NCBI GenBank assembly: GCA_963664815.2
Contig: CAXXHB010000001.1
Location: forward strand, 1 to 64,000
DNA: 64,000 bases
Direction of reading: 5' to 3'
Origin: Spirochaetota bacterium
GTDB taxonomy: Bacteria; Spirochaetota; UBA4802; UBA5550
Below the pieces are notes generated by a model that ran no database searches, was not told the DNA's origin, and saw only the letters and a program-made list of their open reading frames with translations. The translations under genes were made by a program, and so were the position numbers. Positions 1,993 through 24,519 of the stretch are shown here, one piece after another. Position 1 is the first letter of the stretch, and every line of letters begins with the position of its first letter.

Positions 1993-3092
1993 TTCAATGA
2001 TTTCAGGTGTACAGGTTCTGGTTGGAATAAGATATTCCTTTTCCAGTGAGAAATCAGTGGTGGGGGATAATGGGAAATTATGAATAAAATCTGGACAATA
2101 ATTTATTCTGAGCCTATTTGATTATATTTAAATAATATTGTATCCCTGCCGAAATACATAAACTTCCGGTGACGGCCCCCGCACCCCTTGCCTGTTGATT
2201 AATCAAAGTATTAATTGACAGGCAGGAAATTATAAACCATGATGAAAATATCAAAGGTATGGAGATTATACATGGCAAAGTATAAACCTATAGAGAGGGG
2301 ACAAGGATATTTTTTAACAATATATCCGGAAGAAATATTTGATGATAATTCAATAGAGAAGGTAATTGATAGATTCATAGATGAATATGTTGATACAAAA
2401 CCATTTGATAAAAAATATAAGAATGATACGGTAGGGCAAAAGGCGATAGAGCCCTCGGCAAAATTGAAAGTAATTTTATATGGATTAAGCCAGGGGATAG
2501 AGTCGATGAGAAAGATCGAGAGAATGCTTAATCGCAATCATCCCGGATTTTTATTTTTAAGCGGCGGCAGATCAATAGATTATTCGACACTTTGCCGTTT
2601 TCTTAACGATTTTCCAGATCAGATTCCAGTTATCTTTGCCCGTTTATTATATATACTTGAAGAATTAAATCTGATAGACTGGCGCAGAATAATGATAGAC
2701 GGTACAAAGATAAGCAGTAATGCCAGTAAAGAATTTACACGAGACAAGGAAGGTTTCGATAAGAAGCTAAAACATTATGAGAACCTATCCGCGAAACTTT
2801 TAGCGAGAGCAAAATACATATCAGAGTTAAAAGATAATGACGAAATAAGCGAAGAAGAATTAAATAAAGAGAAAGATCTGATAGAAAAGCAGAAAAATAA
2901 ATATGACCAGATCATGATGAAAATAAAGTCATATGAGGATGAGGTCAAAGAGGAAAGAATCACACCTGAAACAAAAGTGAACTTAACCGATAGTGAGAGT
3001 AAGCTTCTTAAAAAGGATGAAAGCTATTGATCTTCCCCTGATATAGTGGACATTAAGTTAAGCCGAAAATATAATAAATTTGGAGGCTTACA

Positions 3093-3383
3093 ATGTCAGA
3101 GAGAAGTAAATACAGCCCGGAATTTAAGAAAGAGGCTGTAGAATTATTAAGAACCAGCGGAAAGACATCACTTGAAATAGCGAATGATCTTGGGATTAAA
3201 AGAGATAATCTATTGCGCTGGAATAGGGAAATTGAAACAGAGGAAAGGAATTCCGGGACAATAACAATAAATCCTCAGGATAGTGAAGAAATTAAACGAC
3301 TCAAGAAGGAAATGTTGATTCTTAAGCAGGAGCGTGACATTCTAAAAAAGGCTCTGGGCATATTCTCGAAACCACAAGAATGA
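3093..3383 (+). CDS. IS3 transposase OrfA (HTH)
   Basis: KYSPEFKKEAV...ERDILKKA; slippery A_AAA_AAG at 3344-3350 for the -1 frameshift. Confidence 0.92.
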   Translation: MSERSKYSPEFKKEAVELLRTSGKTSLEIANDLGIKRDNLLRWNREIETEERNSGTITINPQDSEEIKRLKKEMLILKQERDILKKALGIFSKPQE

Positions 3384-4250
3384 AATATGAATTCATCAAG
3401 GAACAGAGTACTGAATTTCCAGTATCGAGGATATGCCAGATTATGGATGTGAGTAAAAAGCGGTTATTATGCCTGGCTGAAAGCTCCAAAGAGTATAAGA
3501 GGGCTTGAAAATGAAATACTATTGGAGAGGATAAAATCATCACATGAATCAAGCGGAGAGAGCTATGGCAGCCCCAGAATTCATCAGGATTTACTTGAAG
3601 AAGGTATTTTCTGCGGAATACATAGGGTTGAGAGGCTGATGAATGTGAATGGGATTCATGCAAAGACAAAGAAAAAATTTAAGGCAACCACTGATTCGGG
3701 TCATTCTTTGCCAGTGTCTGAGAATATACTAGACAGGAATTTTACTGTTGAAGAGAAAGATAAAGTATATGTGTCAGATATAACCTATATCTGGACATTA
3801 GAAGGCTGGCTGTATTTATGTATAGTAATGGATTTATTTTCCAGAATGATAGTCGGATGGTCAATGGCAAATCATATGAGAGCTGAACTTGTTGAAGATG
3901 CTTTTAACATGGCCTGTATGAGAAGAAATCCGGGCCCTGGCCTGATATTCCATTCTGATAGAGGTAAACAATATGCCAGCAAATCCTTCAGGGAATTACT
4001 TGAATCAAAGAAATGTATTCAGAGTATGAGCAGGAATGGCAATTGCTGGGATAATGCCTGTGCTGAATCTTTATTTCATTCGATGAAAACAGAAGAATTT
4101 TATTTTAATATTTACAAAACAAGGAATGAGGCTAAGAGAAGTATCTTTAGATATATTGAAATATTTTATAACCGTAAAAGAAGGCATTCACATCTGGGTT
4201 ATAAAAGTCCGGAGATTTTTGAAAGATTAAATCTTAAAATAATGGCTTAA
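3380..4250 (+). pseudogene. IS3 transposase OrfB (rve DDE), with an extra A at 3455-3459 breaking the frame
   Basis: MKYEFIKE...VSK frame shifts to SGYYAWLK; SDITY, HSDRGKQY and WDNACAES motifs. Confidence 0.85.
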
Positions 4251-5152
4251 CAAAGTGTCCATTTTTTCGGGGGAACATCACTATATTCAGGGATATAACG
4301 TGCAGGCGGCATTTTGCAGCAACGACATACTTCTTTCAATAGAGGCCACATCTAAAGAAAGCGATATAAGCCTGCTTTCAGATATGGTAGAAAAAGTAGA
4401 AGTTGCTAAAGAAAGCAATGCAGTTAAATGTGAAAGTGAGTATTTATTAGACAAAGGTTATTTCAACATTACACAGATGAGTGAATTAATTCAGGAAGGT
4501 AAAGATTTATATATAGCACCCCCATTACATTTTACAGAGAGCTGGTTTATAAAGGGAGAACATCATGTACAACAAGAAGAAGATGGAGTATATTTTTTCT
4601 GCAAAGGTAAACGTAAGAAAAAGGGGAGATTAGAAAAATCTGACAATAAGTACAAATTCACATTGAGCCGTAATTTTTGTGTAGGATGTGAGCATTATTC
4701 ATCATGCTGGAAAGATAAGGATAGAAATAAGAGCAGAGTCTTTACGGTATCAAAAACCTATGTTGATAACAAAGAACTCTGGTTCAAATATAGAGATCGA
4801 ATGCAAAGCGAAGAATGGAAGTATAAATATAACAGGCGTATTGGAAAAGAACACAATTTCTTTGACTTGAAATTCAACAATGGTCTGAGCCGTTTGAATT
4901 GGCGGGGACGAAAGAAATGTAATACTATATCGATTCTGGCCGGCATTACATATAACCTGAAAAAACTTCAGAAGGCAGTAGCGGATATAGGATGGGTTGG
5001 AATTCAATCTGCAGTAGCGTGAGAAGATGTCGTGGATGGTTTATGCGATGTATATGAAGTCGAAGTAAAATATTTGAATAATTAGAAAGTATAATAAAAA
5101 TTTATAGAAAATTCATACTTCCTGTTTTGAATTTTTATTATTCAACATGCTA

Positions 5153-5380
5153 CCCCCGGAGGGGGCAAAGATAGTCTTGCCCCCTCCGGGGGTGCGGGGG
5201 CTGTTATGTACCGGTAGCTGAGAGTGTATCTAATTGCCGGAGTGCAATGGTGGGGGCTGTTAAGTACCGGTAGCTGAGAGTGTATCTAACCGCCGGAGTG
5301 CAATGGTGCGTGGGCTGTTAAGTACCGGTAGCGGAGAGTATACTCTACCGGCAGCGGCTAAATGGCCGCAGGCCATTAAG
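5153..5380 (+). repeat. GC palindrome (right part) plus ~3 tandem 56-bp units
   Basis: CCCCCGGAGGGGGCAAAGATAGTCTTGCCCCCTCCGGGGGTGCGGGGG then GGGGGCTGTTAAGTACCGGTAGCTGAGAGTGTATCTAA... units starting at 5196, 5252 and ~5310. Confidence 0.9.
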
Positions 5381-5386
5381 GCCAAG

Positions 5387-5842
5387 TTACATGAACTCCA
5401 TTTTTGTACCCCCCGGCACAAGACGGTTGAAGACTGCCACTGAGAGATGTCTTATATGTTCCCTCAGGTACTCATTTTCAGGGTCAAGTGGGAGCTCCTC
5501 TATTTTCAAGCTTACGAAGGTATTATAATCGGCGTACTCCTTCTGCTCTTTGAACATCGTAAACAGGTTAAACAGAACGGAGATCACTTCATCAAGCTTT
5601 GAAGTGGCCATCCATGCCATGGGGTGGTATGTATAATAGTTATCAAGGTTGAACTGGATAGAGGATGCAGCCATTGAGCTGAAGTTGTAGACAGGATCAT
5701 TTTGCGCTCCGCAGTTAGGACATTGGTAGTGTCCCTCGGCATAAGGGAGATACGATTTTCCGCATGCAGTGCATTGCGGCACATCCTCATGAAAGTGAAT
5801 AGTCACTGTAAACCTCCCGGCGGATCCATAATCTTCCGACAC
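5387..5842 (-). CDS. hypothetical zinc-ribbon protein; 5' end overlaps a repeat unit
   Basis: CTAC and CPNC pairs; start uncertain. Confidence 0.55.
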   Translation of the reverse strand: MSEDYGSAGRFTVTIHFHEDVPQCTACGKSYLPYAEGHYQCPNCGAQNDPVYNFSSMAASSIQFNLDNYYTYHPMAWMATSKLDEVISVLFNLFTMFKEQKEYADYNTFVSLKIEELPLDPENEYLREHIRHLSVAVFNRLVPGGTKMEFM

Positions 5843-6461
5843 CAGCCCCCTAAATCACCGGCGGATCCTAAACTTCCGGTGACGGCCCACTAAATCCCCC
5901 GGCGGGGGACTTGAAGATACTGTTATTAAACTATTTGTGTTAAATATTTTCTTATTTCAGACAGAACATAATCTATATTGTTAATTACATCTTCATTTTT
6001 AAATCGTAAAGTGGTTATCCCGGCACTCTTAAGATATTCATCCCTGTAATCGTCATAATCCTTTCTGAGTTTATGAACATCCCCATCGATCTCTACTGCA
6101 AGCTTTTTCTCATGACAGTAAAAATCAAGTATGTATCTGTGTATTGGATGCTGAATTCTGAATCTAAAACCTTCTATTTTTTTAGTTTTTAATTCATTCC
6201 ACAATATTTCTTCCGGAATTGTTAAATTCATCCGCATTTTTCTGGCAAGCTCGATAATATATTTTGGAGATCTTATCTTTGAACTCATAAATGTATTATT
6301 TCAGATAAATATTTATTTGTAAAGCATTCTTTAAGTCCCCCCGGAGGATCCATAAACTTCCGCCACCAGCCCCCTGAATCCCACGGAAGATCCTAAACTT
6401 CCGCCACCAGCCCCCGCACCCCCGGAGGGGGCAAAGATAGTCTTGCCCCCTCCGGGGGTGC
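5815..6461 (+). mobile_element. putative DUF559-associated repeat element (40-bp units, IR, gene, partial IR, 40-bp units, palindrome)
   Basis: TAAATCCCCCGGCGGGGGACTT at 5891-5912 and AAGTCCCCCC at 6333 flank the nuclease gene; deleted derivatives at 24.5, 38.8 and 61.4 kb. Confidence 0.55.
5926..6288 (-). CDS. DUF559 / Vsr-like PD-(D/E)XK endonuclease domain protein
   Basis: ARKMRMNLTIPEEILWNEL...FRIQHPIHRYILDFYCHEKKLAVEIDGDVH...DDYRDEYL...LRFKNEDV. Confidence 0.9.
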   Translation of the reverse strand: MSSKIRSPKYIIELARKMRMNLTIPEEILWNELKTKKIEGFRFRIQHPIHRYILDFYCHEKKLAVEIDGDVHKLRKDYDDYRDEYLKSAGITTLRFKNEDVINNIDYVLSEIRKYLTQIV

Positions 6462-6816
6462 GGGGGCCGTTAAGTACCGGTAGCTGAGAGTGTATCTAAT
6501 TGCCGGAGTGCAATGGCGGGGGCTATTAAGTACCGGTAGCTGAGAGTGTATCTAATCGCCAGACTGCAATGGTGGGGGCTATTAAGTACCGGTAGCTGAG
6601 AGTGTATCTAATCGCCAGACTGCAATGGCGGGGGCCGTTAAGTACCGGTAGCTGAGAGTGTATCTAATTGCCGGAGTGCAATGGCGGGGGCTATTAAGTA
6701 CCGGTAGCTGAGAGTGTATCTAATTGCCAGAGTGCAATGGCGGGGGCCGTTAAGTACCGGTAGCTGAGAGTGTATCTAACCGCCGGAGTGCAATGGCGGG
6801 GGCTGTTAAGTACCGG
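6462..6816 (+). repeat. tandem array of six 56-bp units plus a partial unit
   Basis: Units start at 6462, 6518, 6574, 6630, 6686, 6742 and 6798 and differ by only a few substitutions. Confidence 0.95.
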
Positions 6817-6854: not shown

Positions 6855-9095
6855 TTGATTATGCCCATGTTCATAAATATAATTTATATGAGAAAAATTA
6901 TGAATATGGCCTATGTAATATATTCCGCTTTAATAATTGTAAGTGCAGCAGTTATCGTTTCAGCCGTACTCTATTTTCGCCGGAAGAGAGAAACGGTTGT
7001 CGGATTGCCTGTCAAACTGGTGTCTCTGTTTGCTGTTCTGGCAGCAGGCATTATTGCTGCCGGTTATATGAATTTCCGACAGTTCAGAAATTTCTACCAG
7101 AAGGAGATTGAAAACCAGCTGTTATCCATTGCAGATCTGAAAGTAAGTGAACTTGTGCAGTGGAGGAATGAAAGGATTGCAGACGGCAATGTCTTTTATG
7201 ACAATAAAGCATTTAATAATCTTTACGGAAGATTTCTTTCAAATACCGATGACACGGATACGAAAAAGCAGATTTACTCCTGGCTCAATAATGTCTGCAG
7301 CTCATATAATTATGAACAGGTACTTCTGCTTAATTCAGCCGGTAAAAAACTTATATCGATAAATAATAAACAGAATATACCGGATGGCCAATGGGCAGGT
7401 TATCTCAATGAAGCAGGACGCCTTAAAAAATCAGTGTTGACTGATCTGCACAGAGTATCACCCGGCAGCCCGGTGCACCTTGCTGTGATAGTTCCAGTTG
7501 TTAATGCATATGAAATTAATAGAATCAGCGGATTTATCGTAATGGTGATAAATCCGGAATTATATCTTTATCCCTTTCTTAAAAAATGGCCTACATCGAG
7601 CAAAACTGCAGAGACACTGCTTGTACGGCGCGATGGTGATGATGTACTCTACTTGAATGAATTGAGATTCAGGGATAATACGGCTTTGAATTTTCGCATA
7701 CCACTCAGTGAAACGGAGAAGCCGGCGGTAATGGCAGTCCTTGGAAAGGAGGGTGTTTTTGAGGGTACAGACTATCGCGGCAGGAGTGTAGTATCAGCGC
7801 TCCGTTCTGTACCGGAGTCGGGATGGTTTCTGGTGGCCAGAGTTGATACTTCTGAAGTAAACCGGCCGGTGAAGGTACGCTATTACGCGATGATATTAAT
7901 AATTGCAGCTCTGGTCTCTGCAATGGGGGCTGTTTTCTGGATAATATGGAGAAGGCGGAACGAAAAGTTTTACCGTGAACAGTATAAAATTACAGAAGAG
8001 CTGCGCGTCAGTGAAGAGAGGTTTAAAAATGTTTTTGAACACGCACCTATCGGCAAATCATTAACTACAACCGAGGGTAAAATAAATATTAACCAGGCTT
8101 TTTGTACAATGCTTGGGTATTCGAGGGATGAATTAGAGGGTTTAACCTGGATGGAGATTACACACCCTGATGATATCGAATTTACTCAGAGAAACATCGA
8201 TTCACTTATAAATGGAGAAAATGAATTTGCCCGTTTTCAGAAAAGATATATGCATAAAAACGGTTCAACCGTCTGGACAGATGTCAGCTCATACCTGCAG
8301 AGGGGAAAGTCAGGGGAACCGTTATATTTTATTACAGCGGCCAATGATATAACCGCCCGTAAACTGGCGGAAGAGGAGAGGCAGAAGCTTATTGAGGAAC
8401 TAGAACGGTCAAACTATGAACTTCAGCAGTTTGCCTATGTTGCATCCCATGACCTTCAGGAGCCGCTAAGGATGATCTCAAGCTATCTTCAGCTTATCGA
8501 ACGGAGATATATGGATAAGCTTGATAATGATGCCAATGATTTTATAAAATTTGCGGTAGATGGAGCAAACAGGCTGCAGTCCCTGATTGTTGGCCTGCTG
8601 GAATTTTCACGGATAAAAACATCAGGAAAAGAATTCAGGGAAGTGGATGTAAACAGAATTTTAAATAAAGTACTTACGGATATTGAACTGCAGGTTAATG
8701 AATCGGGTGCAGTTATTGAGCGGGAAAAAATGCCTGTAATAAATGGCGATGAAGCGCAGATCTTCAGACTTTTTCAGAATATCATACAGAATGGAATCAA
8801 GTTCAGACGGGAAGGGGTAAAACCTCATATAACAATATCATTTGAAAAATCGGGGAAAGAGTATATATTTATTATAAAAGACAATGGTATAGGCATTGAG
8901 GAACAGTATTTTGAACGTATATTTATAATATTTCAGAGACTTCACACCAGGGAGGAGTATCCAGGAACAGGTATCGGGCTTTCAATATGTAAAAGAATTG
9001 TTGAAAGGCATGGGGGAAGAATATGGATAGAATCAAAGCAGGGAGAGGGATCATCATTCTGTTTTACAATACCGGAGAACAATGCGCATGATTAA
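6855..9095 (+). CDS. membrane sensor histidine kinase (Cache-like, PAS, Cph1-type HisKA-HATPase); true start probably ~6900
   Basis: TM helices, PAS (ITHPDD), ASHDLQEPLRMI, DNGIGI, GTGIGL. Confidence 0.92.
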   Translation: MIMPMFINIIYMRKIMNMAYVIYSALIIVSAAVIVSAVLYFRRKRETVVGLPVKLVSLFAVLAAGIIAAGYMNFRQFRNFYQKEIENQLLSIADLKVSELVQWRNERIADGNVFYDNKAFNNLYGRFLSNTDDTDTKKQIYSWLNNVCSSYNYEQVLLLNSAGKKLISINNKQNIPDGQWAGYLNEAGRLKKSVLTDLHRVSPGSPVHLAVIVPVVNAYEINRISGFIVMVINPELYLYPFLKKWPTSSKTAETLLVRRDGDDVLYLNELRFRDNTALNFRIPLSETEKPAVMAVLGKEGVFEGTDYRGRSVVSALRSVPESGWFLVARVDTSEVNRPVKVRYYAMILIIAALVSAMGAVFWIIWRRRNEKFYREQYKITEELRVSEERFKNVFEHAPIGKSLTTTEGKININQAFCTMLGYSRDELEGLTWMEITHPDDIEFTQRNIDSLINGENEFARFQKRYMHKNGSTVWTDVSSYLQRGKSGEPLYFITAANDITARKLAEEERQKLIEELERSNYELQQFAYVASHDLQEPLRMISSYLQLIERRYMDKLDNDANDFIKFAVDGANRLQSLIVGLLEFSRIKTSGKEFREVDVNRILNKVLTDIELQVNESGAVIEREKMPVINGDEAQIFRLFQNIIQNGIKFRREGVKPHITISFEKSGKEYIFIIKDNGIGIEEQYFERIFIIFQRLHTREEYPGTGIGLSICKRIVERHGGRIWIESKQGEGSSFCFTIPENNAHD

Positions 9096-9114
9096 ATCAT
9101 CCGGACCCATGCAC

Positions 9115-9350
9115 CAGCCCCCGCTAAAGCCCCCGCCCCCGCACCCCCGGAGGGGGCAAGGATTTTGCTTTGCCCCCTCCGGGGGTGCGGGGGCTGTTAA
9201 GTTTCTGTTGCTGAAGGTATATTATTCCGGCAGTGGTGCAGTGGTGCAGTGGTGCGGAGGCCGAAGTCGAAAAGAGACGAAAATGTCGGGCGTTGTGCCT
9301 TGCCCCCTCCGGGGGTGCGGGGGCTTAGTAATAGTGTAATGGTGCGGGGG
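9115..9350 (+). repeat. GC palindrome plus degenerate 57-bp-type unit and half-palindrome
   Basis: CCCCCGCACCCCCGGAGGGGGCAAGGATTTTGCTTTGCCCCCTCCGGGGGTGCGGGGG. Confidence 0.85.
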
Positions 9351-9386
9351 CTTTACGGAGTCCGGTAAAATCAGCGGAGGAGCAGT

Positions 9387-9833
9387 ATGAATGAATCGTT
9401 GAAAGCAATAGACATTCTTCTTGTTGAAGACAGTGAGGGTGATGTCCGGCTTGTAAGGGAGGCCCTTAAGGAGAATAAACTGAACAATACACTTTTTGTC
9501 GTAAATGACGGCATTGAGGCAACGGATTTTCTTTTCCGGAAAAACAGATATGCCGATGCCGTGAGGCCGGATCTTATAATACTTGACCTGAATCTGCCGA
9601 AGAAAGACGGCCGGGAGGTTCTGGCGGAGATAAAATCTGATGAAACATTGAAGCGTATACCAGTTGTTGTACTTACTACATCCAGTTCCGAAATGGATAT
9701 AGTGAAAACCTATGATCTTCATGCCAACTGTTATATTGTTAAACCGCTTGATCTTATCAAGTTTATCAATGTGGTCAAAAACATAGAAAACTTCTGGCTC
9801 AGTATTGTCAAGCTTCCCAATGGAAAGCAGTAA
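9387..9833 (+). CDS. single-domain response regulator (Rcp1-like)
   Basis: ILLVEDS, LIILDLNLPKKDG, HANCYIVKP. Confidence 0.93.
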   Translation: MNESLKAIDILLVEDSEGDVRLVREALKENKLNNTLFVVNDGIEATDFLFRKNRYADAVRPDLIILDLNLPKKDGREVLAEIKSDETLKRIPVVVLTTSSSEMDIVKTYDLHANCYIVKPLDLIKFINVVKNIENFWLSIVKLPNGKQ

Positions 9834-9834
9834 C

Positions 9835-12800
9835 ATGAAGATGCCGGGTTTGAAAATACTCCTTGTGGAGGATAATCCGGGCGATGCGCGTCTTATACTT
9901 GAGATGCTAAATGAATACGGCGGATGTTCATATAAAATAAAAACAGCCGGTGTTCTATCTGCAGCATTTGAAGAGCTTGAAAATCCGGAATTTGATATTA
10001 TTCTTCTCGATCTTAACCTGCCCGATTCGGCCGGTCTGAATACTCTGGAAAGAATAGTGCAGGAAACAGGGAAAGTTATTCCTGTAATAGTACTTACCGG
10101 ACTGAATGATGAGGATACCGGAATATCGGCAATTGAATACGGCGCCGCAGATTATCTGATTAAAGGTGAACTTAATCATTCCATGTTAATTAAATCGATA
10201 ATGTATTCAATTGGAAGAAAGAAATCAGAGCTGGAAATACGTGAGAGAGAGGAGAGATTCCGCAATCTTCACGAAAGCATGATAGACGCATTTGTACAGG
10301 TTGATATGAGGGGGAAGATAGTATCATGCAACAGCACGTATCTGAAAATGCTCGGATATTCCTTTGAAGAACTGGAGAGGCTGACATATATAGATCTGAC
10401 ACCGGAAAAATGGCGTGCCGGTGAAGCCGGAATTGTTGAAGACCAGATTTTAAAAAACGGATATTCGGAGATATATGAAAAGGAGTACCGGCGTAAAGAC
10501 GGAACCATTGTTCCGGTTGAACTGCGCACATCTCTGCTCAGAGATCCCGATGGCAGGTCAGTCGGCATGTGGGCCATTGTCCGTGATATTACCGACAGGA
10601 AAAAGGCTGAGGATTCTCTTAAAGAGAGCGAGGAGATATACAGGACATTCATAAATGCCTCTGAGGACATTGTTTTTCTTAAAGATGATCAGCTTCGTTA
10701 TATTTTAACAAATAAAAAAAATGCAGAGGTCATTGGAAAACCGGCCGAAGAAATTACAGGCCGGACAGATTTTGAACTTATGCCGCAGGAGACAGCCCTG
10801 CAATGTGCTGCAAGCGACAGGCTTGCTTTAATTAAAAACGGTCCCATTATAAGCGAAGAGACCCTTGACGGGAAAATATATGAAACACGCAAATTCCCTG
10901 TAAAACTCCGTGATAACAGAACGGGAGTCGGATGTTTTATCCGCGATGTAACTGATATCCGCTCAGCAGCTAAATCTATCGAAACAGCGGCACAGGAATG
11001 GCGTACATCATTTGACAGCATTGAAGAGGTTATATGGCTTCTTGATACTGACCTCAGAATATTGAGAGCAAATGTCTCCAGTGAAAAACTGTTCGGCTTA
11101 TCACCTGCTGAGCTTATTGGTAAACATTGCTGGAGCGCGGTTAATGGTGTTGGCGAGCCTGTTGAGAATCACCCTGCATCAAGGGTAAAACAATCTTTAA
11201 GTACCGAAACATCTGTAATGAAAATTAAAAATCTGTGGCTTAACATTACCGCAAGCCCTGTCATTGAAAATGGAGTTCTGAAGGGGATAGTTCATATAAT
11301 AAAGGATATTACCGAACAGAAGCTGAATGAAGATCTTCTTCTTCTCCGGAGCGCAGCAATTGAAAATGCCGCCAATGCTGTTGTTATTACTGATATAAAT
11401 GGTACAATTTTATGGGCAAATCCTGCTTTTGAAATACTGACATTGTATCCATTATCTGATGCCGTAGGGCATAATTCCCGGGATATCTTAAAATCAGGTT
11501 TTCACGACAGGGAATTCTATAAAGATATATGGGATACGGTTTTATCAGGGAGTATATGGAAAGGGGAGATCATCAATAAAAAGAGGGATGGAACATTCTA
11601 TACCGAAGAGATGACAATAGCCCCTGTTAAAAATACAGATGGAATAATTCAGAATTTCATTGCGATAAAACAGGATATAACCGAAAGAAAACTGGCCTTT
11701 GACCTGCTTAACTTACGTCTGGAACTGATTAACTACTCCGCGAATCATTCACCTGAAGAACTGCTGGTAAAAACACTGGATGAAGTTGAAAGAATTACCG
11801 GCAGCACAGTCAGTTTTTTCCATTTTCTGGAGGAGGATCAGGCAACCCTGTCGCTCCAGGCATGGTCAACGGCCACATCGCAAAGATTCTGCAGGGCAGA
11901 AGGGGGTGGAAGGCATTACAATGTCGCAGATGCAGGCGTCTGGGTCGATTGCATCAGGGAGAGAAAGCCTGTTGTGCATAACGACTATATGTCGCTCTCT
12001 CACAGAAGGGGGCTCCCTGAAGGGCATGCGGATGTGATAAGGGAGATGGTGATTCCGGTAAAAAGAAATAATATTATAAAGGCGATACTTGGAGTCGGAA
12101 ATAAAAGCAAAGACTATAATGAAAGAGACATCTCTGTGGTAATATATCTGGCGGATATTGTGTGGGGTATCATTGAAAAAAAAAGAGGAGATGAAAAGCT
12201 CAGAGAGTTTAATGCCGAGCTAGAGCTTAAGGTGGAGGAACGGACTTCGCAGCTTAACAAACTCAACAGGGAGCTTGAATCCTTCTCTTTCAGCGTCTCT
12301 CACGATTTAAGGGCGCCTGTCAGGCATATAATGGGATTTATTGATATGCTTAACAGAGAGAAGGGTAATTTAACAGGAGAGAAAGCTGAACATTATATCG
12401 ACGTTATTGATGATTCTGCCAGACGTATGAACCAGCTGATTGATGATCTCCTTTCCTACTCGCGTATGACACGAACCGCATTTTCGAGACAGAATATTAA
12501 CCTGGAACATCTTGTAAACGAGATATTGGTGGAGTATACATCCGAAATTGAACAGCGGAATATTTCTATTGCCATTAATCCTCTCCCTGAGGTGACAGGG
12601 GACAGGGCCATGATGCGTATAGTTTTTGTTAACCTTATTTCCAATGCTGTTAAATATACCGGTAAAACCGTTAATCCATCAATGGAGATAGGGTGTAAAT
12701 TAATTGATGATAAAAATACATTTTATGTAAAGGACAACGGTGTCGGCTTTGACATGAACTATGCAGGGAAGCTCTTTGGCGTATTCCAGCGGCTGCACAG

Positions 12801-12945
12801 CGATAAGGATTTCAGCGGAACAGGGATAGGCCTTGCGATGGTCAGGAGTATAATAGAGCGGCACAACGGCAGGGTATGGGCCGAAAGCGGGGAGGGTAAG
12901 GGGGCCTGCTTTTATTTTACCATACCTGTTGAGGAGAAAAAATGA
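9835..12945 (+). CDS. hybrid REC-multi-PAS-GAF histidine kinase
   Basis: N-terminal REC (LLDLNLPD), four PAS/PAC segments, GAF, SHDLRAP H-box, HATPase. Confidence 0.92.
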   Translation: MKMPGLKILLVEDNPGDARLILEMLNEYGGCSYKIKTAGVLSAAFEELENPEFDIILLDLNLPDSAGLNTLERIVQETGKVIPVIVLTGLNDEDTGISAIEYGAADYLIKGELNHSMLIKSIMYSIGRKKSELEIREREERFRNLHESMIDAFVQVDMRGKIVSCNSTYLKMLGYSFEELERLTYIDLTPEKWRAGEAGIVEDQILKNGYSEIYEKEYRRKDGTIVPVELRTSLLRDPDGRSVGMWAIVRDITDRKKAEDSLKESEEIYRTFINASEDIVFLKDDQLRYILTNKKNAEVIGKPAEEITGRTDFELMPQETALQCAASDRLALIKNGPIISEETLDGKIYETRKFPVKLRDNRTGVGCFIRDVTDIRSAAKSIETAAQEWRTSFDSIEEVIWLLDTDLRILRANVSSEKLFGLSPAELIGKHCWSAVNGVGEPVENHPASRVKQSLSTETSVMKIKNLWLNITASPVIENGVLKGIVHIIKDITEQKLNEDLLLLRSAAIENAANAVVITDINGTILWANPAFEILTLYPLSDAVGHNSRDILKSGFHDREFYKDIWDTVLSGSIWKGEIINKKRDGTFYTEEMTIAPVKNTDGIIQNFIAIKQDITERKLAFDLLNLRLELINYSANHSPEELLVKTLDEVERITGSTVSFFHFLEEDQATLSLQAWSTATSQRFCRAEGGGRHYNVADAGVWVDCIRERKPVVHNDYMSLSHRRGLPEGHADVIREMVIPVKRNNIIKAILGVGNKSKDYNERDISVVIYLADIVWGIIEKKRGDEKLREFNAELELKVEERTSQLNKLNRELESFSFSVSHDLRAPVRHIMGFIDMLNREKGNLTGEKAEHYIDVIDDSARRMNQLIDDLLSYSRMTRTAFSRQNINLEHLVNEILVEYTSEIEQRNISIAINPLPEVTGDRAMMRIVFVNLISNAVKYTGKTVNPSMEIGCKLIDDKNTFYVKDNGVGFDMNYAGKLFGVFQRLHSDKDFSGTGIGLAMVRSIIERHNGRVWAESGEGKGACFYFTIPVEEKK

Positions 12946-12987
12946 TTTGTCAGAGAATAAAGGATACAATGGCGGTTATAAAGTAAA

Positions 12988-15198
12988 ATGAATGGAAAAA
13001 ATACAAATAGCCGGATTGATTGGTTTAAACCGGGCCTTATGATTTTAATCACATCCGCAGTTTATCTGGCAGCGGCCAGATTATCGCTGCTGCTGGCTGT
13101 CGGGAACAGCAATGCATCACCTGTATGGCCCCCCTCCGGCATTGCGTTTGCAGTTATATTCCTGTGGGGTTACAGGATGAGCCCCGCAATCTTTACAGGG
13201 GCTTTTATCGCCAATATTCTTGCCCTTCAAAGTGCCGGTTTTGCACCGGCTTATTATATTATTCCATCTTTCTTTACGGCGGCGGGTAACATGCTCGAAA
13301 GCATCATCGGGACATATCTGATAAAACGGTTTTCCGGGACTGAAAATCCCTTTGATAATATTAAGGGCTTATTCGCTTTTATAATTTATGGCGGACTGTT
13401 CTGCACGTTGATAAGCGCTGCTGTCGGAGTCTGCAGTTATTGTTCAGCTGCCGGAAACTGGTCATCATTCAGAGAGCTCTGGCTGACCTGGTGGCTCGGT
13501 GACGCTGCGGGTATATTAATTGTCTCACCGATAATAATTATGATTAAAAAAAGGGTAACCGGAACTGTTCCGGGTTCAGGTTTATCCGAAGCTGCTGTTG
13601 TATTTTTTATATTAACAGCATCCTCCGTAATCGTATTCCGGAACAGCTATCAGCTGGCGTATGTTGTTATCCCTCCAATGCTGTGGATTGCCCTGCGCTT
13701 CGGAAGAGTATATTCCGCATGGGCAGTTTTGCTTGTTTCGGGAATTGCCATAATATCTGCAGTCAGGGGTGCCGGTTCAGCCGGCAATGACGTGTCATTG
13801 CTGCTTATTCAGACATATATAGGCATAATCTCAATCATCACCCTTTGCCTGTCAGTACTGTCGCATGAGAGGAGTGAATCGGACAGATCGCTGATCTCAA
13901 TTCAGAAACAGCTCAGGGAGAACCTTGAAGAAATTATCAGGGAAAGAAGCGCCGAACTTGTCCGTATTAATGAACGGCTTATAAGAAAAATTGAAGAGCA
14001 GGAGCATACCGAAAGGGCCCTGTCCTCAAGTGAAATAAAATACCGCGACCTTGTGGAAAGCGTCAACAGCATAATTTTACGCTGGCGGCCGGATGGGGCT
14101 ATTACTTTTTTTAATACATATGCCCGGAAATTTTTCAGATTCTCAGAACCGGACGTGACCGGGATGAATATTATCGGTACAATAGTGCCGGAAAAAGAAT
14201 CATCAGGGAGGGACCTGAAACAATTAATGGATGATATTGTGAGCAGTCCCGAAAAGTATCTGTTCAGTGAAAATGAAAACATCAGGCAGGACGGCGAAAG
14301 GGTCTGGATCTCCTGGACTAATAAACCTGTCTACGATGAATCAGGATCTGTAGCTGAAATACTCTCCGTGGGAAACGATATTACCGAACTGAAAAAAGCA
14401 GAGGAATTTCTGCAAAATACACTGAAAGAGCTCACTGTAGCAAAAGAGCATGCCGAAGCAGCCGACCAGCTCAAGTCCGCATTCCTTGCAACCATGTCCC
14501 ATGAGCTGCGCACGCCGCTGAATTCTATCATAGGTTTTACCGGAATAATACTCCAGGGTCTTGCCGGACCTTTATCAGAGGAGCAGAAGAAGCAGATGAG
14601 CATGGTGCAGAACAGTGCAACGCATCTTTTGTCGCTCATCAATGATGTTCTTGATATATCGAAAATTGAAGCAGGGCAGTTTGAAGTATACGCCGAACCT
14701 TTCGATCTGAGAAGCGTTATTGAAAAAACTGCGGCTGCTTTGAAACCGGCAGCCGTTAAAAAGGGGATCGATCTGATTATAAATGTATCTGATGATGTAG
14801 GAGAGATAGTGAGCGATAAAAGGCGGGTTGATCAGGTTTTATTAAATCTGATTCAAAATGCAGTCAAGTTTACCGACAGGGGGAATGTTACCCTTTCAGT
14901 TGATGTGATTCAGGACTATGCGCCCTCCGGCGCAGACAAAAAATCAGAACCGGTACCTGCAGTGCAATTCAGAGTTTCAGACACAGGTATAGGAATACAG
15001 CCCTATGACCTAAGCAGACTGTTTCAGCCGTTCCGCCAGGTTGACACCGGAATTGCCAGAAAGAATGAGGGAACGGGGCTGGGCCTTGCGATATGCCGCA
15101 GGCTGGCCGGACTTATGGGGGGTGAAGTGACCGCCGAAAGCGAGTGGGGGCGCGGCAGTATTTTTACGTTTACTATTCCTGTAGAGAAAAGGATATAA
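12988..15198 (+). CDS. MASE1-PAS sensor histidine kinase
   Basis: SPVWPPSG and WWLGDAAG MASE1 motifs; MSHELRTPLNSI. Confidence 0.92.
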   Translation: MNGKNTNSRIDWFKPGLMILITSAVYLAAARLSLLLAVGNSNASPVWPPSGIAFAVIFLWGYRMSPAIFTGAFIANILALQSAGFAPAYYIIPSFFTAAGNMLESIIGTYLIKRFSGTENPFDNIKGLFAFIIYGGLFCTLISAAVGVCSYCSAAGNWSSFRELWLTWWLGDAAGILIVSPIIIMIKKRVTGTVPGSGLSEAAVVFFILTASSVIVFRNSYQLAYVVIPPMLWIALRFGRVYSAWAVLLVSGIAIISAVRGAGSAGNDVSLLLIQTYIGIISIITLCLSVLSHERSESDRSLISIQKQLRENLEEIIRERSAELVRINERLIRKIEEQEHTERALSSSEIKYRDLVESVNSIILRWRPDGAITFFNTYARKFFRFSEPDVTGMNIIGTIVPEKESSGRDLKQLMDDIVSSPEKYLFSENENIRQDGERVWISWTNKPVYDESGSVAEILSVGNDITELKKAEEFLQNTLKELTVAKEHAEAADQLKSAFLATMSHELRTPLNSIIGFTGIILQGLAGPLSEEQKKQMSMVQNSATHLLSLINDVLDISKIEAGQFEVYAEPFDLRSVIEKTAAALKPAAVKKGIDLIINVSDDVGEIVSDKRRVDQVLLNLIQNAVKFTDRGNVTLSVDVIQDYAPSGADKKSEPVPAVQFRVSDTGIGIQPYDLSRLFQPFRQVDTGIARKNEGTGLGLAICRRLAGLMGGEVTAESEWGRGSIFTFTIPVEKRI

Positions 15199-15199
15199 T

Positions 15200-16933
15200 A
15201 TGACCATTAATAGTATTCCGGTTTTTGTTAAAAGGCTCCGGTCAGCCTGTTTGGCCATGATTCCGCTGCTTTTTTTATGCAGTGAAGCTGCAGCTGATGT
15301 AAACAGCGGCAGGATTATACGGGTCGGAGTTTATGAAAATGAACCGAAAATATTTACATCGCAGGATCATAAACCATCGGGGATCTTTATTGATATTATA
15401 GAATTTATCGCAAAAAACGAGGGATGGGGACTGCAGTATGTATCGGGTACATGGGCCCAGGGGCTGCAGCGTCTTGAAAATGGTGAAATTGATCTGATGC
15501 CTGACATGGCCTATACTCCCGAACGCGGCAGAAAGTTCTCCTTTCATAAAGTACCTGTTCTGCTGTCCTGGTCGCAGATATATTGCGGCAGGGGGAGTAA
15601 GATAAAGTCGATAATGGATCTGGATAAAAAGCGGGTTGCAGTACTGGAAGGATCAATACAGCAGAAATCCTTCACCAGCCTCGCAGGGGGTTTCGGTCTG
15701 GATGTTACCCTGGTTGCCGTACGGGATTACGGCACCATGTTTGATATTCTCGGCAGAGGTGAAACAGATGCCGGCATTACCAATCGTTTTTACGGCCTGG
15801 TTCATGCAAAAAGAACGGGGATTGAGGATACCGGGATAATTTTTGATCCTGTGGATATTTTCTTTGCCGCACCTGTGAATGATCCTCTGCAGCTGATGAA
15901 CACCATTGACAGCTATCTTATAAAGATAAAAAAAGATACTCAATCGGTATATTTTGAATCATTGAAACGATGGACATCGGAGGATGTTACATTCAAAATC
16001 CCGGTCTGGCTGAAAATCCTTGGTATTGTAATGGGTGCAGTTATACTGACAAGTATAACTGGAAGCGTGATTTTAAAACACGAGGTAAACAGGCAGACTC
16101 TGGAGCTGAAGCAGATCAACCAGGGGATGGAGCAGCGCATAGCCCAGCGTACTGCTGAACTGGCCATAGCGAAAGATCGCGCTGAAGCGTCAGACCGGAT
16201 CAAGTCGGCATTTCTGGCTACAATGTCCCATGAGCTGAGGACGCCGCTTAATTCAATTATCGGTTTTACCGGTGTTATCCTTCAGGGGCTGCCCGGCCCC
16301 CTTAATGACGAACAGAAAAAGCAGCTTGGGATGGTCAGGGGTAGTGCGCAGCATCTTCTGTCCCTGATCAATGATGTGCTGGATATCTCTAAAATTGAGG
16401 CCGGCCAGTTTGAGATGCGTGCTGAGAAATTCAGCCTGCGGGATATAATAGAAAAAGCCGTTGCAGCAATAAAACCGGCTGCGGAGAAAAAAGGGATTAA
16501 ACTCGATATGAAACTGGAAGATGAAACAGGGGAGGCCTTCAGCGACAGTCAGCGTGTGGAACAGGTGCTTTTAAATCTGCTCAGCAACGCAATCAAATTT
16601 ACCGACCGCGGATCGGTATCTGTAACAGCGGAGAATATACCTGAATATATCCACGGCAGTGCGGGGATGGTTTCCAAACCGTTAAATGCCGTCAGAATCG
16701 ATGTAACAGACACCGGAATAGGAATATCTGAAGAGCATATGAAGGATATTTTTCAGCCTTTTCATCAGGTAGATACGGGACTTTCGCGAAAAAACGAGGG
16801 AACAGGGCTTGGACTTGCCATATCCAGGAAACTGGCAGAGCTTATGGGTGGTGAAATAACAGCTGAGAGCAAACCGGGATGCGGCAGTGTCTTTACTTTT
16901 ACAATACCTCTGAATATAAAGGAGCTGTCATGA
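15200..16933 (+). CDS. histidine kinase with periplasmic substrate-binding (PBPb) sensor
   Basis: RVGVYENEP...GIFIDII..., one TM, MSHELRTPLNSI. Confidence 0.92.
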   Translation: MTINSIPVFVKRLRSACLAMIPLLFLCSEAAADVNSGRIIRVGVYENEPKIFTSQDHKPSGIFIDIIEFIAKNEGWGLQYVSGTWAQGLQRLENGEIDLMPDMAYTPERGRKFSFHKVPVLLSWSQIYCGRGSKIKSIMDLDKKRVAVLEGSIQQKSFTSLAGGFGLDVTLVAVRDYGTMFDILGRGETDAGITNRFYGLVHAKRTGIEDTGIIFDPVDIFFAAPVNDPLQLMNTIDSYLIKIKKDTQSVYFESLKRWTSEDVTFKIPVWLKILGIVMGAVILTSITGSVILKHEVNRQTLELKQINQGMEQRIAQRTAELAIAKDRAEASDRIKSAFLATMSHELRTPLNSIIGFTGVILQGLPGPLNDEQKKQLGMVRGSAQHLLSLINDVLDISKIEAGQFEMRAEKFSLRDIIEKAVAAIKPAAEKKGIKLDMKLEDETGEAFSDSQRVEQVLLNLLSNAIKFTDRGSVSVTAENIPEYIHGSAGMVSKPLNAVRIDVTDTGIGISEEHMKDIFQPFHQVDTGLSRKNEGTGLGLAISRKLAELMGGEITAESKPGCGSVFTFTIPLNIKELS

Positions 16934-17313
16934 AAAAAACAATACTTCTTATCGAAGATAATGAGCAGAATCAGTATCTGGAAACCTTTCTTATGGAATC
17001 GCGGGGGTTTACAGTCGAAATCGCCCCTGACGGGCCAATTGGCATAAAAATGGCCTCAGAAAAAAAATTCGATCTGATACTGCTTGATATACAACTCCCT
17101 ACAATGGATGGTTATGCCGTTGCAAAGGCATTACGTGAAAACTCTGAAACCAGGAAGATCCCTATTGTAGCGGTAACATCCTATGCCATGACCGGGGACC
17201 GTGAAAAGGCCATTGCTTCGGGATGTGACGGGTATCTTGAGAAACCGATAAATCCTGATACATTCGTATCTGAAGTGGAACGTTTTCTGATCAGATCGGA
17301 AACCGGAGGTTAA
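16930..17313 (+). CDS. single-domain response regulator (DivK-like)
   Basis: LIEDN, LLDIQLPTMDG, AVTSYAMTGDRE, EKP; ATGA overlap with the upstream gene. Confidence 0.92.
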   Translation: MKKTILLIEDNEQNQYLETFLMESRGFTVEIAPDGPIGIKMASEKKFDLILLDIQLPTMDGYAVAKALRENSETRKIPIVAVTSYAMTGDREKAIASGCDGYLEKPINPDTFVSEVERFLIRSETGG

Positions 17314-17315
17314 TA

Positions 17316-20228: not shown

Positions 20229-20231
20229 ATT

Positions 20232-22060: not shown

Positions 22061-22117
22061 GAGCTGGCTTCATGCACAGGCGAGCCGTATCGGCTCTCTG
22101 CATTTACTCCCAGCATG

Positions 22118-22272
22118 AGCCCCCGCACAAGCCCCCGCACCCCCGGAGGGGGCAAAGCAAAATCCTTGCCCCCTCCGGGGGTGCGGGGGCTGTTAGGTTC
22201 CTGATGCTGAAGGTATACTACGCCAGCAGTGGTGCAGGTGCGGGGGCTGTTAAGTTGCTGGTGCGGGGGCTG
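22118..22272 (+). repeat. GC palindrome plus one 57-bp unit
   Basis: Same palindrome arms with loop AAGCAAAATCC, followed by GCTGTTAGGTTCCTGATGCTGAAGGTATACTACGCC. Confidence 0.88.
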
Positions 22273-22316
22273 TCAAAGCAGTTCCGGGGGAGCCTTTAAA
22301 CAGAAACGGTGAATAA

Positions 22317-24517: not shown

Positions 24518-24519
24518 CA

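Follow-up and report, generated by a model that had tools for sequence, protein, structure and literature searches.

The closest described counterparts of the locus analysed here are the REP and REPIN repeats, which are paired with a REP-associated tyrosine transposase (RAYT), as set out in the portions of Bertels & Rainey 2011 (PMC3116915) and Nunvar 2010 (PMC2817692) drawn upon in this work. Judged against those portions, the present system is alike in that a single- or few-copy gene is positioned between two inverted hairpin repeats, in that tens to hundreds of extragenic, gene-less inverted doublets co-occur with this gene, and in that no target duplication is seen. It is unlike them in that the enzyme is a Vsr-like PD-(D/E)XK hydrolase and not a Y1/HUH (IS200/IS605-like) tyrosine transposase, and in that the repeat is composed of three blocks (C5, C5 and G5) and is not a simple palindrome.

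A second point of comparison is provided by the BoxC, PIT and TMECO motifs, which the portion of Holder et al. 2015 (PMC4666352) used here describes as extragenic, highly conserved and widespread intrastrand-triplex motifs, known from E. coli as well as from other bacteria, that block polymerases in vitro and show higher local variability, and near which no mobility activities were found. As presented there, these motifs share with the repeat of the current work the succession of a pyrimidine block, a loop of 3-6, a complement, a loop of about 3-5 and a repeated purine block, while BoxC-like CCCTCACCC/CCCTCTCCC/GGGAGAGGG blocks flank a second DUF559 subfamily encoded in the same genome (C3:2778597-2779436), this being the only one of the DUF559 subfamilies here with CCCTCACCC-type blocks. 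In E. coli K-12, a motif fitting the TMECO consensus is located ~180 nt downstream of the DUF559 gene ycjD, on one side only. The motifs described below differ in consisting of C5/G5 blocks, with no fit to the 9-nt consensus CCCTCNCCC N3-6 GGGNGAGGG N3 GGGNGAGGG, and in being arranged as inverted pairs that enclose either a gene or a short spacer.

A Vsr-like catalytic fold within a selfish gene is also found in the EDxHD homing endonucleases, with I-Bth0305I as their prototype, as covered in the consulted part of Taylor et al. 2011 (PMC3239194), and the corresponding structure, 3r3p, is the second-best solved relative of the protein analysed here. The comparison differs in that this protein (120 aa in total) has no extra DNA-binding domain, and in that its gene is located between inverted repeats with no homing site defined; neither an intron nor an intein was seen around it among the window ORFs. 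Vsr itself is a repair nickase, and no cytosine-5 methyltransferase partner, of the kind associated with Vsr very-short-patch repair, was found among the 45 window ORFs scanned. Miniature inverted-repeat elements (MITEs) and their parent DDE insertion sequences are alike in their terminal inverted repeats and in having deleted, non-autonomous copies which multiplied after deletion; the element ORF contains no DDE or other transposase domain, and at the doublets of the complete genome G006 no target-site duplication is visible, no flanking direct repeats being seen by eye. A literature search at the level of titles and abstracts returned no description of a DUF559-repeat pairing.

Layout of the locus and its recurrences

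The window, which is the whole stretch of 64,000 nucleotides analysed in this work, contains the locus of interest at 5809-6816, for which the first-pass annotation had described the order 40-bp units, inverted repeat, gene, partial inverted repeat, 40-bp units, GC palindrome and six 56-bp units. This layout is confirmed by the coordinates (Table 1); the conserved core is smaller and comprises the gene between terminal inverted repeats of ~28 nt with the general form C5-N3-5-C5-N3-4-G5. A zinc-ribbon ORF and a histidine-kinase gene lie beside the nuclease gene. In the 3' repeat of the window the outer C block has acquired one mutation (resulting in GCCCAC), and the canonical form is present at the second gene copy (C3:453905-453931) and in relatives. 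The 5' repeat has kept its inner G block and the sequence ACTT, the remainder being replaced by a 40-bp-type unit. Each of the 40-bp units near the 3' repeat begins with the outer block of that repeat, and blastn aligns 6337-6431 to 5813-5908 with a 79% match. The GC palindrome follows the plan GCCCCC-GCA-CCCCC-GGA-GGGGG, a 14-nt spacer and the inverse arm, and as single-stranded DNA folds at -39.5 kcal/mol (z=-10.6, with 0/200 shuffles folding equally well), while each of the adjoining 56-bp units opens with the outer G5 block of this palindrome. Rfam at gathering thresholds gave 0 matches across the whole window.

Table 1 Features of the DUF559 locus and of its recurrences, with positions in the window
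Feature	Position	Strand	Basis or remark
IS1182-family IS in left arm of GCA-type palindrome	2188-5152	+	
56-bp array x2.7 beside split palindrome	5196-5347		TRF
40-bp-type tandem units, 2.4 copies	5809-5905 (outside 3' repeat: 5809-5885)		TRF period 40
3' terminal inverted repeat	5886-5912	-	gene strand AAGT-C5-GCCG-G5-ATTTA-GTGGGC
DUF559 (Vsr-like PD-(D/E)XK) nuclease gene, intact, 120 aa	5926-6288	-	Pfam PF04480
Promoter-like site inside element (TTTACA, 17 nt, TG-AATAAT; 10/12)	6295-6323	-	consensus match only
Partial 5' terminal inverted repeat	6333-6347	-	compared with L002-L006
40-bp-type units, partial 5' repeat to GC palindrome	6337-6409 (beyond the partial repeat: 6348-6409)		blastn
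GC palindrome, gene-less GCA-type doublet	6410-6467		fold; dispersed copies in genus
56-bp tandem array x6.4, 93% matches	6460-6816		TRF
GCA-type doublet, directly after histidine-kinase gene	9136-9193		
GCA-type doublet after response-regulator gene, then unit remnants	22132-22189		
40-bp array x5.5	24303-24536		TRF
TAAAT-type repeat, ~30 nt element remnant and half GCA-type palindrome	24521-24606		
57-bp array x8.2, 114-bp super-period	24594-25059		TRF; no fold beyond shuffles
GCA-type doublet; inverted 57-bp-type units on left (35252-35311)	35312-35369		
Decayed element remnant: degenerate repeat, 3' UTR, gene fragment	38815-38935	-	
GCA-type doublet, right arm cut by IS	59547-59595		missing outer arm = 61290-61302
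IS1182-family IS, two ORFs (DUF772 + DDE_Tnp_1_6)	59596-61289	-	in motif, 4-nt CCCC/GGGG duplication
Internally deleted (non-autonomous) DUF559 element, both inverted repeats complete	61346-61586	+	
41-bp units x2.2 outside 3' repeat	61586-61675		TRF

Recurrences of the module order, with gene remnants in place of the gene, had been reported at 24.3-25.06 kb and, inverted, at 59.5-61.7 kb, and both were recovered by their coordinates. At 24303-25059 the order is a 40-bp array (x5.5), an inverted repeat, ~30 nt of gene remnant, half a palindrome and a 57-bp array (x8.2); the kinase gene at 22317-24326 takes its TAA stop (24324-24326) from the first unit of the 40-bp array. At 59490-61675 the order is inverted, an IS is located inside the palindrome, and the internally deleted gene, which carries one stop and still contains the 5' leader plus approximately residues 47-97, is enclosed by two complete inverted repeats (61352-61585). 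The reduced forms noted at 2.15/5.2, 9.1, 22.1, 35.2 (35.3) and 38.8 kb could all be located. Those at 2.15 and 5.2 kb are the two halves (2176-2187 and 5153-5200) of a single palindrome into which an IS has inserted; this IS is itself interrupted by an rve (IS3-like) element. Beyond the doublet at 9.1 kb lie one 57-bp-type unit and a solo arm (9303-9323). An internal segment, corresponding to 6029-6145, is retained in common by four copies in this genome.

Not all of these modules belong to the gene element. The 40-, 56- and 57-bp arrays, proposed as parts of the system, were not found in five other species of the genus, and their units were rejected as REP-like hairpins with fold z values of -0.1 to +1.0 relative to shuffles. 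The GC palindrome, proposed as a further module, is a separate doublet family, the GCA-type palindrome being dispersed by itself in five other species of the genus with 13-57 matches each. In 7/7 copies an IS1182-family element is inserted at one position of the GCA-type motif with a CCCC duplication, using the motif as a target and not carrying it. The module order of the first-pass annotation is real, and part of it is due to this site-specific insertion; the arrays, the damaged gene ends and the IS1182 targeting are lineage-specific additions in the window. Insertion of IS elements into REP sequences is described in the portion of Tobes & Pareja 2006 (PMC1525189) considered here, to which the use of a single position in all copies is alike, while the target is a triplex-type motif instead of a classical REP; this comparison touches a passenger of the system and not the DUF559 element.

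The segment copied between two replicons is the whole composite at 5817-6537, and not just the repeat-gene-repeat core. A circular plasmid with overlapping ends was rejected as an explanation of the window contig, the copy at its end being only 93.5% identical to 5685-5959 and hence a paralogue.

The nuclease and its terminal repeat

DUF559 is, to our knowledge, a large bacterial protein family still without a function. The 120-aa ORF matched Pfam PF04480 (DUF559) across profile positions 4-108 of 109 with E=1.5e-34 and 118.6 bits (curated cut-off 20.6 bits), and scored 85.9 bits with NCBIfam NF007294, which is under the equivalog cut-off of 218. A profile search against the PDB returned 3hrl (E=3.7e-25) and 3r3p (E=0.0064), and a Foldseek search with an AF2 model of the protein (pLDDT 86.3) returned 3hrl (E=2.1e-8, TM 0.72/0.91), 3r3p (E=1.8e-4) and 1cw0, corresponding to Vsr (TMq 0.64, E=0.23); the nearest solved structures are 3hrl followed by 3r3p, the Vsr-like homing endonuclease I-Bth0305I. 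Within a 12-sequence DUF559 alignment D55, E66 and D68 are invariant and H72 is nearly so. The protein is thus modelled with a Vsr-like alpha/beta nuclease fold and conserved acidic residues, and catalysis is predicted. A homodimer prediction scored 0.17 relative to a mark of 0.42, and PADLOC, used to look for a defence role, produced weak partial matches alone (DpdF 1.6e-5; methyl-directed restriction enzyme 0.0021). Between species, dN/dS of the DUF559 genes is 0.04-0.20, and the gene is under strong purifying selection. The promoter-like site ends 7 nt before the ATG, so that the mRNA may be leaderless, and the CTTTACAAATAAATATT stretch of the promoter-like region is conserved across loci L001-L005 (L001 being that of the window).

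Genome-wide, the motif pattern CCCCC-N3-5-CCCCC-N3-4-GGGGG was retrieved 34 times and the control, consisting of the same pattern read backwards, 0 times, because of which the pattern is considered to be far beyond chance. It occurs as the variants C5-TAAAT-C5-GGCG-G5 and C5-GCA-C5-GGA-G5, with 28 of the 34 copies on the 93.5-kb contig containing the window and 6 elsewhere. By its block plan of a hairpin plus a third homopurine/homopyrimidine block, the terminal repeat is an intrastrand-triplex-type motif, the folding tool covering hairpins only. A third DUF559 subfamily in this genome has its own repeat variant. Both intact gene copies in the genome have damaged ends and no complete 5' repeat, which, together with the small number of motifs beyond the 93.5-kb contig (6/34), suggests that the system may be inactive here.

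Conservation, co-occurrence and derivatives in related genomes

In the best loci of 11/11 relatives (L002-L012, with 52-87% protein identity and ranging from the same genus to the same order) the gene is located between inverted C-block/G-block repeats, the sequence of which varies between subfamilies with the two ends changing together. The flanks of 80 DUF559 loci from many phyla were then considered, 75 of which had at least 150 nt on both flanks and were scored: a flanking inverted-repeat score of at least 30 was reached by 39/75 loci and by 0/64 displaced controls (control maximum 26). A stricter triplex-pattern match, found on both flanks at 14 loci and on one flank at 18, proved too strict and was set aside.

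Of 41 genomes, which being related do not represent independent samples, 12 encode a close DUF559 (best E<=1e-40, a threshold picked after the data were seen) and carry 34-249 motif copies each. Among the 29 without a close DUF559, 27 carry 0-20 motifs and two carry 68 and 74, the latter two genomes being 63-65% complete; the mirrored control pattern gave 0-9 matches per genome. Equal abundance of the repeats in relatives lacking DUF559 had been named beforehand as a refuting observation, and the opposite was found, the repeats being rare or not found there. The original proposal of REP-like repeats paired with a PD-(D/E)XK nuclease is sustained by a conserved architecture, by abundant gene-less doublets and by the rarity of the repeats without a close DUF559. 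A Y1/RAYT transposase (PF01797) was matched neither in this genome nor in G028, which has 188 motifs, and is present in 12/14 motif-rich and 23/27 motif-poor genomes; it does not track the repeats.

Genomes holding the DUF559 gene have 1-3 copies of it and, by comparison, gene-less doublets by the tens to hundreds. In G006, a complete genome, most copies of the repeat are paired in doublets whose spacers span 44-59 nt (8/9 measured ones falling at 56-59 nt), and the majority of these doublets have unique flanks immediately outside the repeat. These doublets and the full element have the repeat alone in common, and an origin of the doublet interiors as deletion products was rejected, as only the repeats match. 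The remnants in this genome (G000) and in G003 are deletion products of the full element, and in G003 8/8 fetched remnants represent one deletion family in different flanks. Longer outer inverted repeats are present in 7/8 copies of this family, which could therefore have been moved by another enzyme. The DUF559 genes of four species differ at dS 0.4-2.9, and the 27-nt repeat is the same in all four.

Comparison of the 7-kb C3 locus with five genomes of the genus gave flanks of ~72-77% identity which map to unlinked places, with no synteny. When metagenomes were scanned with the left neighbour protein, the best match had 80% identity and no same-species strain was found; the corresponding loci (508 kb) contain 1 motif and 0 DUF559 genes, with synteny not conserved on the side of the element. 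Contigs from four public runs, none of them recorded as RNA, were compared with 5350-6459 (a stretch from which the 56-bp array was excluded); they consist of fragments and of joints that skip 335-497 nt, whose sides measure 27-40 nt and which probably come from other deleted copies.

A repeat-plus-nuclease reading and its alternatives

Roughly even odds (about 0.5) are given to the reading that the window contains a decaying local colony of a REP/REPIN-like system of a repeat plus its cognate enzyme, in which a small hydrolytic nuclease of Vsr-like (DUF559) type takes the place of an HUH transposase. Both a repeat-flanked gene and gene-less doublets, by which a REP/REPIN system is recognized, are present, in this genome as few copies that are almost all on one contig. 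The basic unit would consist of an outer C5, a linker, C5, a 4-nt loop, G5 and ACTT, followed by the unit's own promoter, the nuclease gene and the inverse of the same repeat. The nuclease would recognize its own repeat, probably folded or single-stranded, and nick or cut at the inner edge of it, after which the repeat-bounded segment would be copied by host repair or replication. Gene-less doublets and internally deleted copies would represent non-autonomous units served in trans by this route of binding, cleavage and copying, as we infer it, and the absence of a visible target-site duplication fits a non-DDE route. A hydrolase is unable to form the covalent intermediate of RAYT-type transposition, and strand transfer is beyond a hydrolytic nuclease acting alone; we know of no precedent for a copying step carried out by such an enzyme.

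Among the alternatives, the one that survives best, although it is considered unlikely, holds that the nuclease gene is a homing-type parasite which cuts pre-existing gene-less doublets, is then inserted there through recombination with the repeats as homology arms, and has no part in the spread of the repeats, these arising by other means. The proximity of the fold to the homing endonuclease 3r3p, doublet interiors unrelated to the gene-bearing element and 1-3 gene copies among tens to hundreds of doublets all agree with this, and the co-occurrence would be equally expected if the gene lives only where repeats are. Against it, no genome with a close DUF559 carries fewer than 34 motifs, repeat-rich genomes without the gene are limited to 2/29 (both incomplete), recombination would have to act on short arms (27-35 nt), and the origin and near-invariance of the repeats would be left unexplained.

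An improbable alternative is that the nuclease serves the host as a structure-specific enzyme which removes or processes the hairpin or triplex structures formed by the repeats at replication forks, so that repeat-rich genomes would retain it, with its position between repeats being regulatory or incidental. Strong purifying selection would be in line with such a role, as would the in vitro polymerase block and raised local variability attributed to triplex motifs (Holder 2015, PMC4666352, in the portion used) and the function of Vsr itself as a repair nickase; a patchy distribution within families, however, is unexpected for a housekeeping gene, as are exact placement between inverted repeats in distant phyla and the many pseudogenised and deleted copies. 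The least probable alternative assumes no enzymatic link, the repeats being recombination or inversion hot spots which capture and shuffle short genes while pieces are moved by other transposases (the IS1182-family element here, or an enzyme recognizing the G003 outer repeats), as the targeting of the motif by the IS in 7/7 copies, the outer inverted repeats of 7/8 G003 copies and the duplication of the composite unit as a block might suggest, but the captured gene is of the same family across many phyla (39/75 loci versus 0/64 controls), repeat variant and protein subfamily change together even inside one genome, most doublets of G006 are bordered directly by unique sequence, and the IS sits in the motif as its target without carrying it.

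The preferred reading, i.e. a repeat with a cognate DUF559 nuclease, can be extended tentatively, at somewhat less than an even chance, to the proposal that DUF559 proteins are the cognate enzymes of the BoxC/PIT/TMECO-type repeat superfamily and constitute a second, HUH-independent class of REP/REPIN-like replicator in many phyla, where folded ends would be cut in a structure-specific manner and host repair would copy between inverted repeats. If true, a specific gene-repeat pairing would account both for the function of DUF559 and for the partner protein that BoxC/PIT/triplex-type repeats have so far lacked, and would represent a class of mobile element without a transposase or recombinase fold. 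Such repeats also have side effects in the window, where they offer a precise IS target, provide a stop codon for a kinase gene and have seeded tandem arrays. For annotation, short genes labelled 'endonuclease domain-containing' and their flanking G/C-block hairpins would be treated as one unit. The findings point to a selfish system of repeat plus enzyme, of a type for which only another kind of enzyme has been described to date.

A DUF559 gene between inverted repeats

The 120-aa ORF of the element matches PF04480 (DUF559) in Pfam over nearly the full profile length (E=1.5e-34), and a profile of this ORF with 11 relatives retrieved 3hrl, the solved structure of a structural-genomics DUF559 protein (E=3.7e-25), and, more weakly, 3r3p (E=0.0064), which is the catalytic domain of I-Bth0305I, a homing endonuclease of Vsr-like type. 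The same two structures were the top matches of an AlphaFold model of the protein (pLDDT 86.3), which gave a TM of 0.64 against Vsr, and residues D55, E66 and D68 are conserved without exception across the 12 aligned sequences. Between species of the genus, dN/dS of the gene is 0.04-0.20 at dS 0.4-2.9, and the gene is under purifying selection. A promoter-like site (TTTACA, 17 nt, TG-AATAAT; a consensus match only), situated within the element in a stretch conserved in the genus, ends 7 nt 5' of the ATG, before which a Shine-Dalgarno sequence cannot be seen; together these features suggest a leaderless transcript.

The best DUF559 locus was taken from each of 11 related genomes (52-87% protein identity, related at levels from genus to order), and in all 11 the gene is located between inverted repeats. 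The repeat of the genus, GCCCCC-TAAAT-CCCCC-GGAG-GGGGG-ACTT, is positioned upstream of the gene with its exact inverse downstream, and the 27-nt repeat is identical in four species of the genus among those compared for dN/dS. In more distant relatives the linker, loop and block length vary, both ends changing together (for example CCCCCCTGACCCCCGGAGGGGGCATGA and GCCCCCCGACCCCCCGAAGGGGGGCAAT). The plan of the repeat (C block, short linker, C block, 3-4-nt loop, G block) is that of an intrastrand-triplex motif, in which a hairpin would be joined by a third matching block.

From an alignment-based scan, in which each species was represented by a single genome, 80 DUF559 loci were obtained. The closest belong to spirochaete MAGs, and the organism of the window is accordingly a spirochaete; the others belong to Cyanobacteria, Bacteroidota, Chloroflexota, Proteobacteria, Patescibacteria and further groups. 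Among the 75 loci flanked on either side by 150 nt or more, 39 carry an inverted repeat common to both flanks with a score of at least 30, a score reached by none of 64 controls displaced by ~450 nt (maximum 26). Many of these flanking repeats are visibly similar to BoxC, an intrastrand-triplex repeat of E. coli.

In one related genome (G003), all eight C-terminal remnants fetched (L214-L221) belong to a single family defined by a shared internal deletion, each copy being embedded in different flanking DNA. In this family of ~330 bp, the internally deleted DUF559 remnant stands between CCCCCTGTCCCCC(A/G)GAGGGGGCACG and the inverse repeat, and such deleted derivatives multiplied after the deletion had occurred. 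Seven of the eight copies also possess longer outer inverted repeats (GCTCATTCCGGAATGTTGGGATAAT), and therefore another enzyme could have moved the family.

Gene-less copies and co-occurrence with DUF559

The complete genome G006, of the same genus, contains ~100 repeat matches versus one close DUF559 gene. Fourteen of these sites were read, and most are doublets in which an AT-rich spacer separates the repeat from its inverse; in one doublet this spacer is only a few nt long, and some sites are solo repeats. The spacers of nine measured doublets are 44-59 nt long (56-59 nt in eight of them), and the doublets match the gene-bearing element only over the 27-34-nt repeat, a picture known from REPINs. 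No target-site duplication is visible by eye at these doublets, which argues against a DDE-type route.

The generic pattern C5-N3-5-C5-N3-4-G5 was counted in the 41 genomes also searched for the DUF559 protein; these genomes are related to one another, and the counts are inflated by overlapping matches. At a DUF559 threshold of E<=1e-40, which was set after the table had been seen, the 12 genomes with the protein contain 34, 58, 224, 159, 146, 67, 66, 71, 249, 127, 90 and 188 matches. Equal abundance of the repeats in relatives lacking DUF559, which the first-pass annotation would have taken as a refutation, was not seen. Of the 29 genomes without a match at this threshold, 27 have 0-20 motifs. 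The two exceptions, G021 (74 motifs) and G024 (68), are MAGs of 65% and 63% completeness, and the sole DUF559 match of G024 carries three stops. Read backwards as a control, the pattern gave 0-9 matches per genome in the 41 genomes. Gene- and repeat-rich genomes occur alongside repeat-poor ones in no fewer than three families within the order (f1, f2 and f5).

The Y1/RAYT transposase (PF01797), the known REP enzyme, does not explain the repeats. It has no match in the genome of the window nor in G028 (188 motifs), and it occurs in 12 of 14 genomes rich in the motif and in 23 of 27 poor in it. A metagenome scan yielded nothing above 80% protein identity; the one-per-species genomes compared are ~75% identical and without synteny at the locus, and contigs from public runs, none of which is listed as RNA, break in the repeats.

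Modules, arrays and the 93.5-kb contig

Every module which the first-pass annotation had placed around the DUF559 gene was found, and in the order claimed (see table). Likewise, the order does recur at 24.3-25.06 kb and, in inverted form, at 59.5-61.7 kb, and the reduced forms elsewhere in the window are real.

Coordinates of the modules of the DUF559 element and of the IS1182-family copies (C1, the 93.5-kb contig, of which the window is 1-64000; C3, other replicon of the same genome)
Feature	Position	Strand	Basis
40-bp units	5809-5905		
Inverted repeat, 3' of gene	5886-5912		
DUF559 gene, intact 120-aa ORF	5926-6288	-	ORF call and Pfam match
Partial inverted repeat, 5' of gene	6333-6347		
40-bp-type units after partial inverted repeat	up to 6409		
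GC palindrome, 58 nt	6410-6467		
56-bp units x6.4	6460-6816		
IS1182-family copies in window	2188-5152; 59596-61289		
IS1182-family copies outside window	C1:90.9-92.5 kb; C3:454.4-456.1, 2132.5-2134.2, 2571.8-2573.4, 2784.7-2786.3 kb		

The two intact gene copies, that of the window and that at C3:453948-454307, differ by 3 amino acids and both retain little of the 5' repeat. In the window's copy the 3' repeat is also point-mutated in its outer block. Those copies in this genome that keep two complete repeats contain broken genes. The unit copied between the two replicons is the entire composite 5817-6537, with identities of 93.75% and 96.7%, and segment 6029-6145 is exactly retained in four remnants of the genome.

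The GC palindrome belongs to a second variant of the motif, whose doublets have a GCA linker and a 14-16-nt spacer, and this GCA-type doublet stands alone in unique intergenic DNA of five other species (13-57 matches per genome). None of the 40-, 56- and 57-bp arrays was found in these five species, and their units fold no better than shuffles. Every array unit starts with a repeat's outer G5 block, and in all cases the arrays run outward from a repeat; they are tentatively taken to be lineage-specific minisatellites seeded at repeats. A recurrent outer module (…ACTTGTACC… followed after ~10-20 nt by …AACAG) adjoins the left repeat at three G006 loci (L101, L103 and L109) and at window 61320-61345, and a mosaic, BIME-like organisation extending past the repeat is suggested. 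A separate 69/138-bp tandem periodicity at 53568-54421 simply reflects the repeats encoded in the gene at 52707-54575, whose product is a leucine-rich-repeat protein of BspA type.

Seven sensor histidine-kinase or response-regulator genes (PAS, GAF, MASE1 and dCache domains) follow one another at window 6855-24326, with repeat modules at three gene ends of this run (9.1, 22.1 and 24.3 kb). The kinase gene at 22317-24326 ends within the first 40-bp unit, the repeat array supplying its last residues and its stop codon, and the TAA at 24324-24326 is that of the CCCCC-TAAAT linker of the motif.

An IS1182-family element (NF033551), whose two ORFs carry DUF772 and DDE_Tnp_1_6, occupies one and the same point of the GCA-type motif in all seven copies, with a CCCC duplication, the joint being GCCCCCGCACCCC, the IS, and CCCC(C)GGAGGGGGCAA. 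It is a site-specific IS having the triplex-type repeat as its target, resembling IS elements that insert into REPs, and its insertion accounts for the split palindrome at 2.15/5.2 kb and for part of the 59.5-61.7 kb layout. Copy 2188-5152 contains an rve-integrase (IS3-like) ORF at 3522-4250, which splits the transposase into 2239-3030 and 4255-5022, so that an IS is nested within an IS within the palindrome.

Of the 34 exact motifs in the genome, 28 are located on the 93.5-kb contig, at a density of 30 per 100 kb versus 0.12 per 100 kb elsewhere. This contig, with a G+C content of 40.8% versus 36.5-38.0% for the rest and with accessory genes encoding ParA (61983-62711), an integrase (45313-46317), several IS, HicB, HEPN and an AAA_21/RloB pair, resembles a plasmid or accessory island. 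The latter pair, a defence-type AbiEii-like AAA_21 ATPase and a RloB-like protein at window 40000-41954, adjoins MORN- and ankyrin-repeat genes, and a Transposase_31 (YhgA/Rpn-like) ORF beyond the window (C1:79057-80169) is another PD-(D/E)XK-type nuclease gene.

Candidate mechanism and relation to triplex-type repeats

The TMECO consensus of E. coli is CCCTCNCCC N3-6 GGGNGAGGG N3 GGGNGAGGG (Holder et al. 2015, PMC4666352), and the same authors state that they never found mobility functions in the vicinity of such motifs; neither "endonuclease" nor "DUF" occurs as a word in the main text of that article. The repeat of the window's element shares the block plan of BoxC/PIT/TMECO, but does not fit the TMECO consensus. 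A second DUF559 subfamily of the window's genome (41% identical; C3:2778597-2779436) is an exact tandem duplicate, each copy lying between BoxC-like repeats (CCCTCACCC/CCCTCTCCC/GGGAGAGGG-type; CCCTCACCC, CCCTCTCCCC and GGGAGAGGG blocks with long loops), and a third paralogue has yet another repeat variant on its 3' side. In E. coli K-12, the stop codon of ycjD (annotated DUF559) coincides with a degenerate hairpin, which is followed within locus L115 (NC_000913 1351100-1351420) by a second copy of part of the ycjD 3' end and then, ~180 nt downstream of the gene, by a motif fitting the TMECO/BoxC consensus; no TMECO-type motif is present upstream of the gene.

Going beyond the anatomy, the conservation and the co-occurrence, which are observed, we propose that the DUF559 nuclease would recognise its own repeat and cut there, and that host repair or replication would then copy the segment between two inverted repeats. 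Strand transfer is beyond a hydrolase, and the copying step is therefore without precedent, which constitutes the main weakness of the proposal. The gene might otherwise be of a homing type, merely parasitising doublets already there, or the nuclease might be a structure-specific enzyme serving the host; lastly, an enzymatic link might be absent altogether.

Milman et al. 2023 list DUF559 proteins, with an odds ratio of 14.3, as enriched in their set of predicted inversion targets. This enrichment fits genes located between inverted repeats, but the article offers no explanation of them. In the literature searched, no description of DUF559 genes as partners of these repeats was found. With the DUF559 nuclease as putative partner of its own repeat, the system is provisionally filed as REP/REPIN-like, with another enzyme class.
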